This document shows, in pieces, positions 12,360 to 31,893 of a stretch of DNA of 57,383 bases (the first letter of the stretch is position 1; each line of letters begins with the position of its first letter). Source of the DNA: a virus (lineage: Duplodnaviria; Caudoviricetes). Below the pieces are notes generated by a model, which was not told where the DNA came from, ran no database searches, and worked only from the letters and a program-made list of their open reading frames with translations. The DNA lies in the IMG/VR virus record IMGVR_UViG_3300028615_000012, positions 1-57,383 of that record; one strand, written 5' to 3'. The translations under genes and the position numbers were made by a program.

Positions 12360-12628
12360 TCCGCGTCCGGCGCTGGCTCCGGCTTCGACTCGGCCGCAAT
12401 ACGCTCCTGCGCCTCGCGCTTCGTCTCCGTGATCTTCGTGTTCTGACGCACATTCCCGAACGTGAAATCGTCCTTGGCCTGCGCCTTGCGCCGATAATTC
12501 GCGCTCATGTTCTTCTTGATCTCGGCCTTGCGCGCCTCCTCCGATACCGGCTCCTCGGCCGCTACCTCACCCGGCTCGCTCACGGGCTGCTCGTCGACGC
12601 TCTCGCTCACGTTTGTTTCGTCGGACAT
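12356..12628 (-). CDS. Hypothetical protein (90 aa)
   Basis: Purine-rich RBS; ATGA coupling to the next gene. Confidence 0.65.
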   Translation of the reverse strand: MSDETNVSESVDEQPVSEPGEVAAEEPVSEEARKAEIKKNMSANYRRKAQAKDDFTFGNVRQNTKITETKREAQERIAAESKPEPAPDAE

Positions 12629-13738: not shown

Positions 13739-13751
13739 ACCCGAGGAGGTA
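13739..13751 (+). promoter_or_regulatory. Extended start-associated RBS motif ACCCGAGGAGGTA (first of 8 related copies)
   Basis: Exact copies at 16934 and 17995; partial copies at 17237, 19025, 19392, 26640 and 26853; each precedes an ATG. Confidence 0.85.
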
Positions 13752-13756
13752 ACGAA

Positions 13757-14170
13757 ATGACGAACCGCACCCCATGGACACCGGCCGAGAATGTCGCGCT
13801 GTGTCGTCTGTACTTCACCATGCTGGACGCAGCCCTCGACGGCCGCGACTACAACAAGGCGGCGTTGATCCGCAGCGCACAGGGCGCCGGCGACCAGTGG
13901 CAGAACGACAGCCACGACGCCGACGGTAACGCCGTGCTCCGCAACCGCAGCCGCGGCAGCATAGAGGCCAAGCTGATGAACGCCAGCGCAGCGCACCGTG
14001 ACCTAGTGCCGGGAGCCGAGACAATGGACGGCCACGGCTACCGGGCGCTGGCCAACTACCAAGCCGCGCTCAAGGAAGCGATGGCGGATGCACTCGCAGC
14101 CCGCGGCCACCGCTCGCAGGAATTGACAGCGCACTACGTTAAGCAGCGTGTCGTAGGGCAGCGCCCATGA
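13757..14170 (+). CDS. Stand-alone domain resembling the N-terminus of HNH/DUF3883 restriction-type nucleases (137 aa)
   Basis: WTPAEN..LCRLYFTML....RDYNKA...RSRGSIEAKLMNASA...GYRALANYQ; no nuclease motif. Confidence 0.55.
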   Translation: MTNRTPWTPAENVALCRLYFTMLDAALDGRDYNKAALIRSAQGAGDQWQNDSHDADGNAVLRNRSRGSIEAKLMNASAAHRDLVPGAETMDGHGYRALANYQAALKEAMADALAARGHRSQELTAHYVKQRVVGQRP

Positions 14171-16933: not shown

Positions 16934-16951
16934 ACCCGAGGAGGTAGGACA

Positions 16952-17257
16952 ATGGCAACCAGCAAAGCAACACCCGACCGGCTAACCGTCACGGTTTACG
17001 AGGCCGGATCCGCTCAACTATTCAGCCAGACGTCGGCGATGTACTACGGCGAAGCCGGAACGCTGGCATGGGCGCTGGCTGGCCGCGCGTATCTGGCCGG
17101 CTATGAGCAGCCCGAAGTGTATCTAACCCGCAGCGACGGCCGGCGCATCGAGGTGACGCGCCCGAGCCGTGACGTCTGCGAAAGCGCCTATTACCGCGGC
17201 GCCCGATTTTGGGCCCAAGGCAATCAGCGTTATCAGCCCGAGGAGGTAACACAATGA
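16952..17257 (+). CDS. Hypothetical early protein (101 aa)
   Basis: Extended RBS motif at 16934. Confidence 0.8.
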   Translation: MATSKATPDRLTVTVYEAGSAQLFSQTSAMYYGEAGTLAWALAGRAYLAGYEQPEVYLTRSDGRRIEVTRPSRDVCESAYYRGARFWAQGNQRYQPEEVTQ

Positions 17258-17622: not shown

Positions 17623-18016
17623 AGCATTTACGGCCGATTGCGGCCACGAGATCCCCGCGTTACCCGCCGGCCACTCCGGCGGGACTGGCTATGGCCGAGA
17701 CGCCGAGGGCCGGACGTTTTGCTATGAGTGCTGTGCGGCCCTGGATCGCCGCGACATGGCCGAGACTGGCCGCGCGGTGCTCTATCTCACAACCGAGGGC
17801 CACGCGAGCGGGCCCTATGTGCTCACCAATTGGCCGGGCACGTTACGGATACCCGTGCAGGCCGCGAGCTCCGGCCGGCATAACATCGCCGGCACCCGTA
17901 CCGATGTCTGGTTTAGCTTCGGCGGCCGGCGCTGGCACGGCGTCCAATACGGCGAATTTTCACAGCTGGCGCATTGCAGGCGCCTGAAAGCAACACCCGA
18001 GGAGGTAAGACAATGA
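17612..18016 (+). CDS. Hypothetical Cys-containing early protein (134 aa)
   Basis: GGGAGG RBS; DCGH, GTGYG, CYECC, TNWPG motifs. Confidence 0.8.
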   Translation: MTTKAFTADCGHEIPALPAGHSGGTGYGRDAEGRTFCYECCAALDRRDMAETGRAVLYLTTEGHASGPYVLTNWPGTLRIPVQAASSGRHNIAGTRTDVWFSFGGRRWHGVQYGEFSQLAHCRRLKATPEEVRQ

Positions 18017-19000: not shown

Positions 19001-19039
19001 GGCGCGCGCCGTGCAGATATATGACGAGGAGGTAAGACA

Positions 19040-19411
19040 ATGAAAGACAGAATGCAAGCATGGGACTGGCCCAGTGTTCGCGATCGCTTCGCGACCCTTT
19101 CAGACGCGCTGGAAATGCCGCCGGATAGTTGCGGCGAGCTCGCCCAGGAACTACAGGATATTGCCGGCTGGATTGCCCTGCAGGGCGCCAGCAAGGCGGG
19201 GGTGTTTTGGGCTTGCCCGACTTGTGGCTGTACCGAAATCGAGGGGCAGGCATGGGTACACCTGAACGAGGACCGGCTATCGAATAGCGAACCGCCGTCC
19301 GATTATTATTGGTGTCCGCAATGCGACATTAACGGCGATGACGGACATTTTGAGAACGGTTGCCCCGAGGCCCAGGAATGGCGGCCGATAACCGAGGAGG
19401 CTACACAATGA
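19040..19411 (+). CDS. Zn-ribbon early protein (123 aa)
   Basis: CPTCG and WCPQC pairs; extended RBS. Confidence 0.8.
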   Translation: MKDRMQAWDWPSVRDRFATLSDALEMPPDSCGELAQELQDIAGWIALQGASKAGVFWACPTCGCTEIEGQAWVHLNEDRLSNSEPPSDYYWCPQCDINGDDGHFENGCPEAQEWRPITEEATQ

Positions 19412-26580: not shown

Positions 26581-26633
26581 GGGCCTATAATGTACTGACA
26601 AATGTATTGCAGAGCAACCGGAAATTTTCCGGT
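26564..26633. promoter_or_regulatory. Divergent overlapping promoters plus palindrome copy 2
   Basis: Plus strand: TTGTTT-N16-TATAAT (26564-26591). Minus strand: TTGCTC-N17-TACATT (26617-26589). Direct repeat AATGTAYTG; 17-bp palindrome at 26617-26633. Confidence 0.7.
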
Positions 26634-26652
26634 TTTTAACCGAGGAGGAAAA

Positions 26653-26853
26653 ATGAACCACAAAATGCCGTGCCATATTACGGACGGCCCCACAGATCCC
26701 GAGGACGCCGAGGACCGCTGGCGCGATCTCGAGCGGATCTCCGACTACGACTACGACAAGGCCGCCAATGCGGTCTGCACAATCTGCGGCGTCGAATGGG
26801 TCGACGTCCTGCATGGCGAGGACACCTGTGCTGGTTGTCTGAGCCGGGCCTAA
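26653..26853 (+). CDS. Small Zn-finger protein (66 aa)
   Basis: CTICG...CAGC; GAGGAGG RBS. Confidence 0.75.
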   Translation: MNHKMPCHITDGPTDPEDAEDRWRDLERISDYDYDKAANAVCTICGVEWVDVLHGEDTCAGCLSRA

Positions 26854-26868
26854 CCCGAGGAGGAAACT

Positions 26869-27633
26869 ATGACTGACTATGATCTCAACACCGTAATACC
26901 CGCAGTTCTGCAACGGCTCGACAACATCGACGGCATGCTGGTCGATCACCAGCGCATGTTCGACAAGATCCAGATTATTGAGTCGGCCAAGCCTGATTGC
27001 ACTGAGCTCTACAGTGCGCTGGCCGCGGCCCAGGGAGAGATCCAGAACGCCGAGGCCAATACCGAAAACGAATTCATCGGCAAGAAGTATGCGAACCTAG
27101 CCGCCGTGCTCGATGCTATTCGCGAGCCGTTCTCAAAAAACGGCTTGTGCCTCATTCAGCTGCCGCAGCCTACCGATACACCGGCAACGCTTGGCCTGCG
27201 CACGATCCTCGCGCACGAGTCCGGCCAGTCGATCGAGGACTATTACGAGATGTCGCCGCCGAAGCTGGACCCGCAAGGTATCGGCAGCTGCATGACCTAC
27301 ATGCGTCGCTACGCAGCGATGGCGATGGCTGGCATTGCCGGCGCGCTGGACGACGACGCCGAGCGCACTAAGGCAGAAGCGCCCAAGATCACGCCGGCCG
27401 AGGCCGACGCGATTCTCAATCTCGCCGACGAGCTCTTTGGCTCCGACGCAGACAACCTGCTCGATCGTATGTGCGCCAAGATCTTCGACTGCGATTCTGT
27501 GCCGCAGATCCCAGAGGGTCAGGCCGAAGTCGCTATGCGCCGCCTGAAAAACCAGCGCGCGCGCATGGACAAGGAAGCCGCCAAGCCGGAAACCAAAGCG
27601 CCGAGCGCGAAACCCAAAGGTGACAAGTCGTGA
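26869..27633 (+). CDS. erf: ERF-family ssDNA-annealing recombinase
   Basis: LAAAQGE...KYANLAAVLDAIR...LAHESGQ...PQGIGSCMTYMRRY...DDDA. Confidence 0.92.
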   Translation: MTDYDLNTVIPAVLQRLDNIDGMLVDHQRMFDKIQIIESAKPDCTELYSALAAAQGEIQNAEANTENEFIGKKYANLAAVLDAIREPFSKNGLCLIQLPQPTDTPATLGLRTILAHESGQSIEDYYEMSPPKLDPQGIGSCMTYMRRYAAMAMAGIAGALDDDAERTKAEAPKITPAEADAILNLADELFGSDADNLLDRMCAKIFDCDSVPQIPEGQAEVAMRRLKNQRARMDKEAAKPETKAPSAKPKGDKS

Positions 27634-28531: not shown

Positions 28532-28953
28532 ATAAAGAACTGATCTCGCGGTTGCGGGAAGCAGTAGAAATCACTGACAAGGAATTTATCGCAGCGGTGG
28601 CCGACGCACTGGAAGCGGCACAGCAGCGGGAAGCGCGGCTGAACAGAGATAATGCCAACCTGTTCGATGAACTGAAAAAAGCGCAAGAGCGCATCGCAGA
28701 ACTGGAACATAGCCTGAAGTTGGCTAACGAATCATGCGGCGAGTGGGCTGACGAAAACGAAAAGTTAGAAGCCAAAAACGAACGGCTGCGAGCTGCGCTG
28801 GACAGGGCTTGCGAGGCAATCGAAACGCAGCCGCAGGTAGGGCGAAGCATTGATTATGCAAACGGATTTCGACGAGGCGTTCAGTGCCAACGCATACGCG
28901 CGAAGTTTGCGCGAGATGAAGCACTCGCCGCTGCGGAGGTGGGCGATGAGTAA
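28528..28953 (+). CDS. Coiled-coil hypothetical protein (Ead/Ea22-like)
   Basis: GTG start with GAGGAGG RBS; ADALEAAQ..RIAELE heptads. Confidence 0.7.
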   Translation: MNKELISRLREAVEITDKEFIAAVADALEAAQQREARLNRDNANLFDELKKAQERIAELEHSLKLANESCGEWADENEKLEAKNERLRAALDRACEAIETQPQVGRSIDYANGFRRGVQCQRIRAKFARDEALAAAEVGDE

Positions 28954-29395
28954 AAGTACATTCGATTTCGGTTCCGGGCCAGTGCCCGCTCATCAGCACC
29001 CCAATGGTGGCGGATGGGTTGCTGATACAGCGAGCGTTGCTGACACGGCTTATGTTGGCCCAAATGCGCGGGTCTACGACGATGCGCTGGTCTCCGGCAA
29101 TGCGCGGGTCTACGACGATGCGTGGGTCTGCGACGATGCGCGGGTCTACGGCAATGCGCGGGTCTGCGAGGATGCGTGGGTCTACGAGGATGCGGAGGTC
29201 TACGGCAATGCGCGGGTCTACGGCAATGCGTGGGTCTGCGAGGATGCGGAGGTGTACGGCGATGCGCTGGTCTACGACGATGCGCTGGTCTCCGGCGATG
29301 CGCGGGTCTACGGCGATGCGCGGGTCTTCGGCAATGCGCGGGTCTGCGGCAAAGCGGAGCTCTCCGGTAATGCGCGGGTCTACGATGCCGACTAG
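28946..29395 (+). CDS. Left-handed beta-helix hexapeptide-repeat protein (149 aa)
   Basis: HQHPNGGGWVA..A.VA..AYVGP followed by 18 [ND]A[RWEL]V[YCSF][GDE]-type repeats. Confidence 0.9.
   Translation: MSKSTFDFGSGPVPAHQHPNGGGWVADTASVADTAYVGPNARVYDDALVSGNARVYDDAWVCDDARVYGNARVCEDAWVYEDAEVYGNARVYGNAWVCEDAEVYGDALVYDDALVSGDARVYGDARVFGNARVCGKAELSGNARVYDAD
29063..29386 (+). repeat. 18-bp coding tandem repeat, 18 units
   Basis: Consensus (A/G)ATGCGCGGGTCTACGGC encoding the hexapeptides. Confidence 0.9.
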
Positions 29396-29633
29396 CTACC
29401 AAACATTGAAAGACATAACCCTGTATTTTTTCGGCATTGTCTCCGGCCTCGCGCTATCCTTGATCGCCGATCGGCTCAAAGAGCTCACCGATCCGGACAT
29501 CGACGCGCTCTGGCGAGAGCACGACGCAATCCGCGTCTGCATTGAGCGATCCGATTGTCGCCTGTCGATGGATGACTGGATCAGATACTACGACCTGAAA
29601 TGGTCATTAACAGAGGAGAAGGACATTGAGTGA
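29385..29633 (+). CDS. Membrane-anchored hypothetical protein (82 aa)
   Basis: ITLYFFGIVSGLALSLIA transmembrane segment. Confidence 0.65.
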   Translation: MPTSYQTLKDITLYFFGIVSGLALSLIADRLKELTDPDIDALWREHDAIRVCIERSDCRLSMDDWIRYYDLKWSLTEEKDIE

Positions 29634-29910
29634 AGATCAAGCGCCCTACGACGCGCAGCCCAAACCAGAAGCACCCACGCCACCGCCACCGCTGGCGCCG
29701 TGCCCGTGCGGCACCGTTCCGGAAAACCTGCTGATCGAGATGCCCGACCGGGCCAAGTACGGCCGAGCGATGGGCGATTGCTGCGGAGATTGGTCTATCG
29801 AATTCAAAAACGGGTACACTCAGGACCCCGAAAAGACTACAGCGCGAGCTCGAGAGGCGTGGAACGACGCGCCGCGCGCTGAACCGATCCCGGCGTCATC
29901 CGACGCATAG
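29626..29910 (+). CDS. Lar-like (restriction alleviation) Zn protein
   Basis: LAPCPCG...CCG...AREAWN pattern; TTG start with AGGA RBS. Confidence 0.55.
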   Translation: MSEDQAPYDAQPKPEAPTPPPPLAPCPCGTVPENLLIEMPDRAKYGRAMGDCCGDWSIEFKNGYTQDPEKTTARAREAWNDAPRAEPIPASSDA

Positions 29911-30002
29911 TACCTCCTCGGGTACAAGGGAAGCCGGACTACTCCCGTGCCGGTCTGCAACAAAGTAGGGAGAGGGCCGCCTGTCAGAGGGCGGCCTTTT
30001 TT
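29910..30002 (+). ncRNA. Candidate anti-RBS small RNA ending in an intrinsic terminator
   Basis: TACCTCCTCGGGT (29911-29923) is the exact complement of ACCCGAGGAGGTA and lies in a GTACC/GGTAC hairpin. Confidence 0.5.
29975..30002 (+). terminator. Rho-independent terminator of the rightward middle operon
   Basis: GGCCGCC/GGCGGCC stem plus T6. Confidence 0.85.
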
Positions 30003-30213
30003 ATTCGTCCGAACGATAGTGGACGGAGTGCCGGCCCTCGAGGCGGGCGACGGCACGGGAGATCCCGCGCACTGGCTTGACTTCCTCCTCCAAGTGCTCG
30101 ACTTTCGTCTCGACCTTGGTAATACGCTTTTCTGTGTGCCGCAAGCCAGCGACGATCGCCAGTATGATGATGACGGTCTGGCCGATGATTGCGACCCAGA
30201 GTTCAGAGCTCAT
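30001..30213 (-). CDS. Small membrane protein with a coiled coil (holin/XhlA-like)
   Basis: N-terminal TM, then RITKVETKV..LE. Confidence 0.65.
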   Translation of the reverse strand: MSSELWVAIIGQTVIIILAIVAGLRHTEKRITKVETKVEHLEEEVKPVRGISRAVARLEGRHSVHYRSDE

Positions 30214-30214
30214 A

Positions 30215-30475
30215 TCAGTTTCCCATCAGGATCTCGAACGCCTGCTCGACCCTTCGCTCGGCGTCGTCGATCTCCTCTTTGTTGCGTTCTGCCAGCGCCT
30301 TGTTCGCTGCGATGTTGGTATCCATGCTGACGATCTTGGCGTCGGTGCCGAGATCCTGTGAGGCCAGCGCGTCGTCGACGGCAACGTCGATCCGCCATTC
30401 GGCATAGGCGCCAAGCACCAGCACGCCGAACGCCATGATGGCCAGGATGCCGCCGTTTTCCTTGATCCAGTTCAT
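30215..30475 (-). CDS. Membrane-anchored coiled-coil protein (86 aa)
   Basis: GGILAIMAFGVLVLGAYA TM segment. Confidence 0.7.
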   Translation of the reverse strand: MNWIKENGGILAIMAFGVLVLGAYAEWRIDVAVDDALASQDLGTDAKIVSMDTNIAANKALAERNKEEIDDAERRVEQAFEILMGN

Positions 30476-31233
30476 TCGCCCTCCTCCCCATCATCCTCGG
30501 CGAACAGCGCCTTGATCCGCGCCCGCTTCTCGTCGGTGACAAAATCCTCGTGAACGATGACTGGCTCCGGCCGGCGCTCCGCTCGCTCGAGAAGCCGTTG
30601 CTGCCGCTCAACCTGCTCCTGCAGCTGCGCCTGCTCCATGCGTAGCATTGCGAGCTCCTCGTCATTCTGTCTCTCGATCTGCGCGACCATTGCCGGCAGC
30701 GCGTTCGCCGCAGCCGCCGGCGGCGTGAAATCATGCGCGAGCTCGCACTCCTCCTCGCTGGCGAATTCCTTGAGGATCTCTTTGACGTTGCACAGCGCCA
30801 TCGCAGCCAGATGATACTTGCCGGCGCTCAGGTAGAACTCTGCCATGCACACGTTGTTGAGAATCAGGCCTTGTCGGCCGAACACCGGCGTCGACCATTG
30901 CGTTGAGCCCAGACAGTCTGCGATGTCGACGTCACCGAGGACGTTACCCAGGGCCAGTGACTTCGACTCGTTGTGCATCGTGTTGCTACTTGGCGCATTG
31001 ACATCGACCGGCACCGTCACGTCGCCGCCGCTGAACGTGCCGCCGTCGACGTTGATCGTGTCACCACCGACGTCGATCGTGTCGCCGCCGACGTTGATCG
31101 TGTCGCCGTCGTTGCAGGAATTGCCGCGGCAGTCGCCGCTGGCCTGCGCAACCTGAATGCCCCAGATGAACCATGCGATCGCCAGCGCCAGCGCCAGCAA
31201 CCCCCACAGCCGAGCCTTTGTTACCGTTCTCAT
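30472..31233 (-). CDS. Exported Cys-containing protein with GDTI(N/D)V repeats (253 aa)
   Basis: Signal/TM sequence, three 21-bp repeats near 31047-31110, coiled-coil tail. Confidence 0.75.
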   Translation of the reverse strand: MRTVTKARLWGLLALALAIAWFIWGIQVAQASGDCRGNSCNDGDTINVGGDTIDVGGDTINVDGGTFSGGDVTVPVDVNAPSSNTMHNESKSLALGNVLGDVDIADCLGSTQWSTPVFGRQGLILNNVCMAEFYLSAGKYHLAAMALCNVKEILKEFASEEECELAHDFTPPAAAANALPAMVAQIERQNDEELAMLRMEQAQLQEQVERQQRLLERAERRPEPVIVHEDFVTDEKRARIKALFAEDDGEEGE

Positions 31234-31661
31234 AACGCCACCAATATCCCGAGGGCGATCAGCCCCCTGTGAAACCAGTTATCGACAAAATGGTCCCGCC
31301 GCTCGCGGGCCAGCTGCTCCTCGCGCACCTGCCCGAACTGATGCGCCGCCTTGGCGCAGCCCACGAGCTCGTTGTAGGCCTCGCTCTGGGCCTCGAGCGC
31401 CGCGGCGTTGGCAGCCGCAACCTCGTAATTGCCCCCTGCTGTGACTGCGTAGGCCGTCAGCTGACGAAAGCCCTCGAGGCTGAACGTCACGGTGTCCTCG
31501 CTGGTTGACGCGGGAGACGGCATCTCAGGCAGCCTCAGAGGCTCCTGAATTTCCACCGAGGCCTCGTCGACCTCGCAGGTAGGGAGCTCAACCGGACTGC
31601 TGACGCACCCGCTCAGACTGCCAAGCAGAGAGCAGATCATCCATATCGGGATTCGATTCAC
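31230..31661 (-). CDS. Lipoprotein spanin (Rz1/o-spanin-like) with a hydrophobic C-terminus
   Basis: Lipobox LSGC; overlaps the 3' end of the i-spanin gene. Confidence 0.65.
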   Translation of the reverse strand: MNRIPIWMICSLLGSLSGCVSSPVELPTCEVDEASVEIQEPLRLPEMPSPASTSEDTVTFSLEGFRQLTAYAVTAGGNYEVAAANAAALEAQSEAYNELVGCAKAAHQFGQVREEQLARERRDHFVDNWFHRGLIALGILVAL

Positions 31662-31893
31662 TCAGGCCCTCCAACCGTTTCTCGGTTTCCGCCGCGGCGT
31701 CCTTCGCCGCCGCCTTTTGTTTCTCGGCCTTGCGCGCCAGCTGCTCGGCCTTTTTCTTGTGCTCGTTGGCGCCGGTTGCGAGGAGCTCGTCGCGCTGCCG
31801 CTCGGTGCGCCGCAGCTGGCGGGCGTCACGGCCCAGGATCGCCAGCGCGGCAGCCAGTAGCAGGCCGCCGAGCCAGAGGATCCAGCTTTTCAC
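31588..31893 (-). CDS. Inner-membrane spanin (Rz-like)
   Basis: N-terminal TM then coiled coil; follows the holin gene. Confidence 0.65.
   Translation of the reverse strand: MKSWILWLGGLLLAAALAILGRDARQLRRTERQRDELLATGANEHKKKAEQLARKAEKQKAAAKDAAAETEKRLEGLSESNPDMDDLLSAWQSERVRQQSG

Follow-up and report, generated by a model that had tools for sequence, protein, structure and literature searches.

A candidate RNA complementary to ribosome-binding sites at the 3′ end of a phage recombination operon

The virus record IMGVR_UViG_3300028615_000012 (Duplodnaviria; Caudoviricetes) is a complete record in IMG/VR of 57,383 bp with approximately 60% G+C, and a marine sediment metagenome is the sole source to which its DNA was traced. 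Here, we analyze that whole stretch, called the window, and specifically a structured element that occupies the 90-nt gap between a plus-strand operon ending in the gene p94 and a convergent minus-strand operon for small membrane proteins. Because the p94 stop codon sits at 29908-29910, the element is 3′ untranslated region (3′UTR). The stop codon abuts or overlaps the first hairpin of the element, H1. The genes at the locus are:

26653-26853, plus strand: small first gene of the erf operon
26869-27633, plus strand: erf (PF04404, 2e-21)
Between erf and the exonuclease gene, plus strand: open reading frame (ORF) of 84 amino acids
27884-28531, plus strand: YqaJ-type exonuclease
Between the exonuclease gene and the YdcK-type gene, plus strand: coiled-coil ORF
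5′ of p94, plus strand: gene for a YdcK-type beta-solenoid protein
29626-29910, plus strand: p94, last gene of the erf-exonuclease operon (from the ORF list; homologues in 52 related loci)
30001-31893, minus strand: small membrane-protein operon, converging on the p94 operon

The element itself is composed of the following parts:

29910-29925, plus strand: hairpin H1, GUACCU-CCUC-GGGUAC, in which 29910-29915 pairs with 29920-29925; it holds the mirror, 29911-29923
29933-29954, plus strand: hairpin H2, GCCGG-ACUACUCCCGUG-CCGGU, with a 12-nt C-rich loop and a conserved stem
29955-29974, plus strand: single-stranded CUGCAACAAAGUAGGGAGAG stretch, G-rich, with a GGGAG block kept in most relatives
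29975-30002, plus strand: intrinsic terminator, a GGCCGCC/GGCGGCC stem (GC stem 29975-29996) and U6

The original prediction, made from the sequence of this DNA, held that positions 29911-29923 are exactly antisense to an extended ribosome-binding site (RBS) of the phage. This is the case: TACCTCCTCGGGT (29911-29923, plus strand), which we call the mirror, is the exact reverse complement of the 13-nt sequence ACCCGAGGAGGTA, which we call the tag. A pattern search and a survey of runs at start sites likewise recovered the predicted full copies at 13739, 16934, and 17995, together with copies of 9-12 nt at five more RBSs:

13739-13751, plus strand: exact 13-mer, before the ORF starting at 13757
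16934-16946, plus strand: exact 13-mer, before the ORF starting at 16952
17237-17248, plus strand: 12 nt, before the ORF starting at 17254
17995-18007, plus strand: exact 13-mer, before the ORF starting at 18013
19025-19034, plus strand: 10 nt, before the ORF starting at 19040
19392-19400, plus strand: 9 nt, before the ORF starting at 19408
26640-26648, plus strand: 9 nt, before the first erf-operon gene, ORF starting at 26653
26853-26863, plus strand: 11 nt, before erf, ORF starting at 26869, part of the element's own operon

All forward copies are on the plus strand, and because every one sits 4-7 nt 5′ of a start codon, the motif is an extended ribosome-binding tag. The eight runs measure 13, 13, 13, 12, 11, 10, 9, and 9 nt, and across the 57-kb genome 8 of the 11 plus-strand runs of at least 9 nt are found at start codons. 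With up to two mismatches, ACCCGAGGAGGTA has seven sites in the window versus an expectation of 0.67 ± 0.73, and none of 100 shuffles gets seven. Six of these sites are on the plus strand (exact at 13739, 16934, and 17995; one mismatch at 17236 and 26853; two mismatches at 26638), and the minus strand carries a single exact copy, at 29911-29923. The tag is, then, a motif longer than the Shine–Dalgarno (SD) sequence that is repeated at a fixed short spacing, in one orientation, and is rare elsewhere (six forward sites versus 0.67 expected). The exact 13-mers reside in a separate transcription block 10-16 kb upstream; the sites in the element's own operon match over only 9 and 11 nt. The first rightward gene has, immediately 5′ of its RBS, a perfect palindrome and then a run of T at 26617-26633 (AACCGGAAATTTTCCGGTT TTT).

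Folding distinguishes the two strands. The plus-strand RNA from 29908 to 30004 has a minimum free energy of −41.9 kcal/mol (z = −2.82; 1 of 200 shuffles folds as well), and the minus strand of the same region folds no better than shuffles (z = −1.22; 24 of 200). The intrinsic terminator foreseen in the 3′UTR of the rightward operon is present, as a GC stem and U6 following the p94 stop codon. Two other structural claims need amendment. First, the proposed GUACC/GGUAC hairpin does expose a CCUC loop, but its stem is longer than envisaged, at 6 bp (GUACCU/GGGUAC), and takes in part of the anti-SD sequence. Second, the additional C-rich loop exists in H2 of the window, but it is not a conserved anti-SD sequence, as the H2 loops of relatives are mostly not complementary to the tag. 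The H2 stem does covary in relatives, reading CCGG, GCCG/CGGC, CUGG/CCAG, or GCGG/CCGC. The calculated H1:tag duplex reaches −26.8 to −27.4 kcal/mol versus −7.1 kcal/mol for the H1 hairpin alone, so that the modeled energetics allow H1–tag pairing. Duplex energies of the whole element against leaders were noisy and uninformative.

Using the exonuclease, we retrieved 69 viral loci, 80 metagenome loci, and one close genome contig. Approximately two dozen of the viral loci keep the order erf–exonuclease–p94 and converge on the same minus-strand genes. Homologues of p94 occur in 52 related loci, 47 of which reach the stop codon and terminator, and 46 of these 47 carry the element (43 by the strict pattern; L019, L020, and L113 miss only the H2 pattern); L103 is the only one without it. 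The viral and metagenome sets share loci, so the elements are better counted as 28 distinct 90-mers. In relatives, the order is H1 with CCUCG (or CCUUCG or CUCCUU), H2, a G-rich stretch, and the terminator, within about 90 nt, and every distinct element listed has its U tract on the plus strand. The window's element lies where those of its relatives do, directly after the p94 stop codon and convergent with the minus-strand membrane-protein operon. Loci L014, L076, L093, and L107 possess the element with no p94 detected. Viral contigs searched with a DNA pattern of the element yielded no identical copy.

The relatives bear on an alternative that the original prediction had itself raised, namely that the reverse copy is the RBS of a 23-amino-acid minus-strand ORF (29837-29908) or, by extension, the relic start of a lost minus-strand gene. 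The ORF exists, and ACCCGAGGAGGTA-CT-ATG makes a plausible minus-strand RBS and start. However, in 19 of 30 distinct elements the stretch 2-13 nt after the minus-strand SD contains no ATG, GTG, or TTG. The other 11 (counting one, L010, that was anchored on the wrong CCTCG inside p94) do open an ORF there, but these ORFs range from 4 to more than 26 codons and are unrelated in sequence. The ORF also overlaps the conserved p94 on the opposite strand, and the plus-strand terminator separates it from the minus-strand operon. We reject the 23-codon ORF as not conserved in relatives, and find it hardly credible that the reverse copy serves as, or descends from, a minus-strand start.

If the mirror acts on the tag, the two should change together. 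For each lineage, we searched for the places where the reverse complement of its own element occurs and recorded the longest matches:

L003: CAACGCGAGGA, 11 nt, RBS of the first operon gene
L007: CTTACGCGAGG, 11 nt, RBS of the first operon gene
L010, L011, L015, L091, L094, and L105: CGCGAGGAAA, 10 nt, RBS of the first operon gene
L017, L018, L019, and L109: CCTACGAGGAA (tag variant CCTACGAGGAA(AC)), 11 nt, RBS of the first operon gene
L106: CATCGAGGAAA, 11 nt, RBS of the first operon gene
L002: AGAAACGGAGG, 11 nt, mirror in the terminator loop
L073: AAACGGAGG, 9 nt at two RBSs, mirror in the terminator loop

Eight relatives were also taken as whole genomes (G001-G008), giving nine with the window. 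Their layout is that of the window: several forward copies at RBSs in a block 10-16 kb upstream, a further one in the operon leader, and a single reverse copy, which lies in H1. Matches to each genome's own H1 include:

G006: CCGCGAGGAAA, 11, 11, and 11 nt at RBSs, 10 nt at the operon leader, 9 and 9 nt at two more
G008: 12, 11, 11, and 10 nt at RBSs
G002: ACCGCGAGGA / CGCGAGGACT, 10, 10, and 10 nt at three RBSs
G005: CTTACGCGAGG, 11 and 11 nt at two RBSs
G007: CCTACGAGGAAAC, 13 nt at the first-gene RBS, 4 nt before the ATG
G001: 11 nt at an RBS, the only forward copy in 43.6 kb, together with one reverse copy

Pattern counts in G006 and G008 gave four forward and one reverse copy each; the reversed-pattern control gave 0/0 and 1/0. 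The two bases 5′ of CGAGG are CC, GC, TA, or AT depending on the lineage, and H1 carries the matching GG, GC, UA, or AU. At least six lineages show coordinated change in the flanks beyond the SD core. Covariation of the RBS flank and its antisense copy in relatives, the comparison proposed alongside the original prediction, is therefore positive, both in the lineage matches and in the permutation tests described below. Complementarity to the target RBS is kept in relatives through compensatory change, the exceptions being G003 and G004. Several natural tag–mirror variants have changed together, and this comparison argues for a functional link between the two. We conclude that the element is real and conserved, that it is structured and lies on the transcribed strand, and that coordinated change preserves the relation between mirror and tag.

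Coordinated change does not by itself name the partner. The motif could be a protein site on double-stranded DNA, or the forward tags could be read by an RNA-binding protein, with the copies following the specificity of that protein and no RNA pairing involved. The available text of Pope et al. 2011 (PMC3203893) left RNA versus protein binding open for the comparable start-associated tags of Cluster K mycobacteriophages, to which we return below. A protein site does not account well for the geometry, however. Forward copies occur only on the coding strand, at SD distance from starts and with the SD included, and the single reverse copy is always in transcribed 3′UTR, in a covarying hairpin before a plus-strand terminator. 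Moreover, the RBSs of L002 and L073 have the sequence ACGGAGG, and in these two it is the terminator loop UUACCUCCGUUUC, not H1, that forms the mirror. A mirror that has relocated to the terminator loop in these lineages fits an exposed RNA loop rather than a fixed DNA site. We consider a protein site quite unlikely.

Permutation tests asked whether each H1 pairs better with its own phage than with others. In the 12-lineage test, H1 (25 nt) was compared to RBS-like windows in the 2.6 kb before the exonuclease gene, and the longest runs were summed. The own-pair sum is 107 versus 87.2 ± 4.1 when permuted, and 2 of 200,000 permutations reach 107. For the whole element the own-pair sum is 118, which 0 of 200,000 permutations reach. 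A second test compared H1 to all same-strand start windows in the nine genomes. At a run length of at least 10 nt there are 22 own matches versus 60 over 72 foreign cells (286 of 100,000 permutations reach the own value), and at a length of at least 11 nt, 15 own versus 26 foreign (111 of 100,000). The foreign matches are mostly between lineages with a common tag. Opposite-strand start windows in the nine genomes gave seven own matches.

These tests also address the plainest explanation, that the element is an ordinary structured 3′UTR and terminator that stabilizes mRNA, its anti-SD likeness a product of composition and its RBS matches functionless. GC-rich 3′ ends with C-rich loops are common, the matches of 6-9 nt across lineages come from the shared SD core, and two genomes have no long own matches. 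Against this stand the three exact 13-mers and a site count that none of the 100 shuffles reached, flanks outside the SD core that change in step, and the excess of own over foreign pairing under permutation. We regard a functionless likeness as very unlikely.

The hairpins, too, are kept by paired change. In the MAFFT alignments A1, A3, A4, A5, and A7 the hairpins were out of register, and RNAalifold on A1 returned no pairs. The covariance model, R1, was therefore built on one well-aligned clade (A8), from seven sequences and with the window excluded. R1 matches window positions 29911-30004 on the plus strand (25.1 bits, E 7.9e-5 in 375 kb, model positions 1-82 of 82); a second search gave E 4.8e-5, and the element is the only window match at E ≤ 1. 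Matches to other lineages mostly range from E 1e-10 to 1e-2, with L073, L013, and L077 weak (E about 0.2), and L005, L010, and L012 are not among the R1 matches listed. Across the 24 confident matches, in an alignment fitted to the R1 structure and biased towards it, 91.8% of cells pair versus 77.9 ± 1.3 for shuffles and 36-57% for slid partners. Two-sided changes are seen in 13 of 16 pairs in these sequences, and none of 500 shuffles comes up to the observed value for either pairing or two-sided change. All five H1 pairs changed on both sides, as did five of the six pairs of the terminator helix (helix 3), which is 100% paired. H1 is not strictly homologous by position, because CCUCG sits in differing parts of the hairpin between lineages: in the 5′ arm and loop in some, in the loop and 3′ arm in others.

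Known RNA families do not cover the element. Rfam cmscan at the gathering score returned zero matches in the whole window and in the loci of seven relatives, and we reject a known family on that basis. The best sub-threshold match on 29850-30060, anti-hemB, scores 19.8 bits versus a threshold of 49.5 and lies mostly over the terminator.

Lineages vary in how the element is built and in what surrounds it. In L007, L009, and L012, the CCUCG of H1 pairs with an upstream CGAGG or GAGG in the same hairpin, for example CCGAGG-UUCA-CCUCGG in L009; judged by its predicted fold, the mirror in hairpins of the L009 type is masked by a decoy copy of the tag. The G-rich stretch may pair with the H2 loop. 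A shuffle test of such a pseudoknot over 21 sequences gave a mean best helix of 4.71 versus 4.10; helices of 6-9 bp occur only in the L017 clade (L017, L018, L019, L021, and L112; shuffle fractions at most 0.12), and matching 6-bp pairs between the H2 loop and the G-rich stretch are seen by eye in L076, L093, and L107. A pseudoknot is possible. In the L017 clade, the p94 stop codon lies within the H1 loop, and in L011-L013 a small transmembrane ORF is inserted between p94 and the element. L016-L022 and L025 have an extra plus-strand gene between the element and the minus-strand operon, approximately 480 nt after the element, with its own TTATACTA-like box and its own terminator. At the other end of the operon, the leaders of L011, L012, and L013 contain, about 45 nt before the first-gene start, two direct repeats of approximately 9 nt (GTAATGACA-like) over a TATAGT-like box, an arrangement that, from its sequence, looks like an operator.

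The gene that precedes the element, p94, encodes a small Cys-rich protein (CPCG...CC..W...AWN.APR) with invariant CPCG, C, W, and AW..A.R positions (alignment A2; homologues L002-L025). Searches for Pfam, PHROG, and NCBIfam matches to p94 found none, and p94 queried as a single protein or as alignment A2 retrieved no loci. The protein may resemble Lar-type restriction-alleviation proteins. Lar-type proteins also follow recombination genes.

The nearest genome contig, L152, has 54,650 bp, as long as a whole phage genome, and belongs to a metagenome-assembled genome labeled Acidithiobacillales bacterium SM1_46; the genome records of 185,579 species included no other close relative. It shares with L007/G005, letter for letter, the 105 nt that end at the terminator U tract. 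The label is either a hint of the host or a binning artefact. Among named phages, two DNA searches of a phage collection with 10 kb of the window found no close relative. Boilgate, the one mycobacteriophage among the 17 records listed, matches over only about 330 nt at 69.5% identity, in the beta-solenoid repeat gene. That gene (YdcK-type, window 28850-29395, PF18836) has DNA matches of about 320 nt and 66-85% identity to very different phages, whose hosts include Acidovorax, Bacteroides, Mycobacterium, Xanthomonas, and Streptococcus.

What, then, does the element do? Its sequence and its co-variation with the tag indicate that it is probably an anti-RBS regulatory RNA, acting either from within the 3′UTR or as a small RNA processed out of it. 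We hold, with moderate confidence, that it most likely represses translation of the tagged genes through base pairing. That the RNA is produced and stable, that it actually pairs, that pairing represses, and whether action is in cis or in trans, we infer from the comparisons above. The original prediction of an anti-RBS RNA is to this extent partly supported: the tag and mirror co-vary, and the minus-strand ORF is not conserved.

Several observations weigh against repression by pairing. Two of the nine whole genomes, G003 and G004, have an H1 with no start-site match of at least 10 nt in their own genome, and the H1 of G003 matches the tags of G002, G006, and G008 at 10-11 nt, better than any site of its own. 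G003 (L013 lineage) has its element at 12476-12548 of the oriented record, which is 53.5 kb and 97% complete; its mirror may be orphaned, or the tagged block may be absent from its record. In the 12-lineage test, own pairing is as good as, or better than, the best in its row for only 5 of 12 rows with H1 and 6 of 12 with the whole element, because related lineages share tags. An unfiltered test of the 2.6 kb upstream was weak (119 versus 110.7 ± 3.6; fraction 0.021), and it was replaced by the RBS-window tests. In the L017 clade, the site would lie 20-30 nt inside the first gene if an upstream in-frame ATG is the true start, although in G007 it is an ordinary RBS located 4 nt ahead of the ATG. 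Part of the anti-SD sequence is inside H1, and because the stem is 6 bp and holds that part, the hairpin must open for full 13-nt pairing. A consensus scan found no sigma-70 promoter upstream of H1, and a separate small RNA would therefore need processing. Finally, the protein-site explanation considered above predicts co-variation of all copies equally well.

A narrower form of pairing must also be weighed, one that acts purely in cis. The notion is that the 3′UTR hairpin folds back on the leader and erf RBS of its own operon, in the manner of the Staphylococcus aureus icaR mRNA, and tunes that operon only. In most relatives (L003, L007, L010, L011, L015, L017-L019, L106, and G007), the mirror finds its best match, or its only one, at the RBS of the operon's own first gene, and the 43.6 kb of G001 contain the 11-mer just twice, forward in the leader and reversed in H1. 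The icaR case, as set out in the available text (PMC3868564), is a precedent for such folding. The window itself argues otherwise, as all three of its exact 13-nt matches belong to a different transcription block, 10-16 kb upstream, and its own-operon sites match less well, and in G006, G008, G002, and G005 the RBSs of a distal block match equally well or better. We regard exclusive action in cis as unlikely.

Repression of the whole tagged set by base pairing could proceed as follows. The last 90 or so nucleotides of the erf–exonuclease–p94 transcript would form a structured RNA consisting of H1, H2, the G-rich stretch, and the terminator, with H1 carrying the mirror of a phage-private extension of the SD, a "start-associated" tag. 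The tag marks eight non-structural genes on the plus strand, the operon's own first gene and erf among them. H1 would open as the RNA builds up and pair with the tagged translation-initiation regions, the acting form being either the mRNA 3′ end or a small RNA processed from the 3′UTR. Pairing would cover the SD and so block 30S binding, and the duplex may also be cut. The predicted outcome is a delayed negative feedback on the tagged set that spares untagged (structural) genes and host genes. If this is correct, the element would be a simple timing switch for phage early genes, it would give a plausible purpose to start-associated sequences, and it would point to compact, programmable translational off-switches.

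Each component of this scheme has relatives among known regulators. Bacterial small RNAs derived from 3′UTRs and ending in terminators, and small RNAs with C-rich anti-SD loops, combine hairpins and a terminator at an mRNA end with an exposed C-rich sequence directed against the SD. Our element, known here from sequence alone, differs in that its predicted targets are the phage's own tagged genes. A phage precedent is the c4 antisense RNA of phages P1 and P7, which is processed from the same operon transcript as its targets. Loops of c4 pair with complementary sequences that cover a downstream RBS, and between P1 and P7 loop and target have changed in matching ways. In contrast to our element, c4 is located 5′ of its targets, and the control it exerts serves immunity and is confined to one operon (icd-ant). 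Rfam, which includes a C4 family, had no match in the window or the seven relatives searched.

The icaR mRNA of Staphylococcus aureus likewise resembles the phage element in aiming a C-rich 3′UTR motif at an SD region. According to the available text of Ruiz de los Mozos et al. 2013 (PMC3868564), the motif pairs with the SD region, blocks the initiation complex, and makes an RNase III substrate. There, one gene is controlled within the same mRNA, by a 7-nt UCCCCUG that faces a generic SD. The phage element, in contrast, matches a private tag over 10-13 nt, would address up to eight genes in two transcription blocks, and co-varies with its partners.

The closest counterpart of the tag is the start-associated sequence (SAS) of Cluster K mycobacteriophages, a 13-bp motif positioned 3-7 bp ahead of the start codons of non-structural genes (Pope et al. 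2011, PMC3203893). As far as that text describes it, the SAS, like the window's tag, is an asymmetric, phage-private 13-bp motif with an SD core that marks a subset of genes, almost always in one orientation. The phages, hosts, and motif sequences are unrelated; the window has neither the Cluster K consensus GGGATAGGAGCCC nor kinship to the cluster. Reports from 2024 and 2025 still call SAS function unknown or untested (PMC11373665, PMC12699233). The words "antisense", "small RNA", and "opposite orientation" do not appear in the text of these two reports that was available; their supplements may list reverse sites of other Cluster K phages.

Cluster K genomes do contain a reverse copy. Specifically, phage Anaya has 16 forward SAS sites and one reverse site within two mismatches, and the reverse site is located in the gp96-gp97 gap (59870-59882 of the record; 34871-34883 of L176), flanked by GCGCGG/CCGCGC arms. 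The surrounding 216-nt stretch folds with z = −4.4, and the gap region is conserved in 182 Cluster K records. In nine aligned phages, the mirror is exact or near-exact in three, a degenerate C/U-rich loop in four, and absent in two. Because the tag is invariant between subclusters, no co-variation test is possible in Cluster K. The reverse SAS as an instance of the same device is a lead, not a demonstration.

Taking the two groups together, we tentatively suggest, as a possibility more doubtful than repression itself, that unrelated phage groups run a private translation address: an SD-extending tag together with one mirror RNA that switches the whole tagged set, with the tag–mirror pair diversifying as immunity specificities do and the Cluster K reverse SAS being the same device. 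If so, related phages residing in one cell would avoid regulating one another, and the SAS motif, whose role has been open since 2011, would be explained. RNAs that block RBSs are already known; a private tag common to a gene set and answered by one mirror RNA is not described in the literature we searched. The variants found here, beyond what the Cluster K phages offer, contribute a ready series of orthogonal tag–mirror pairs suited to work with reporters.

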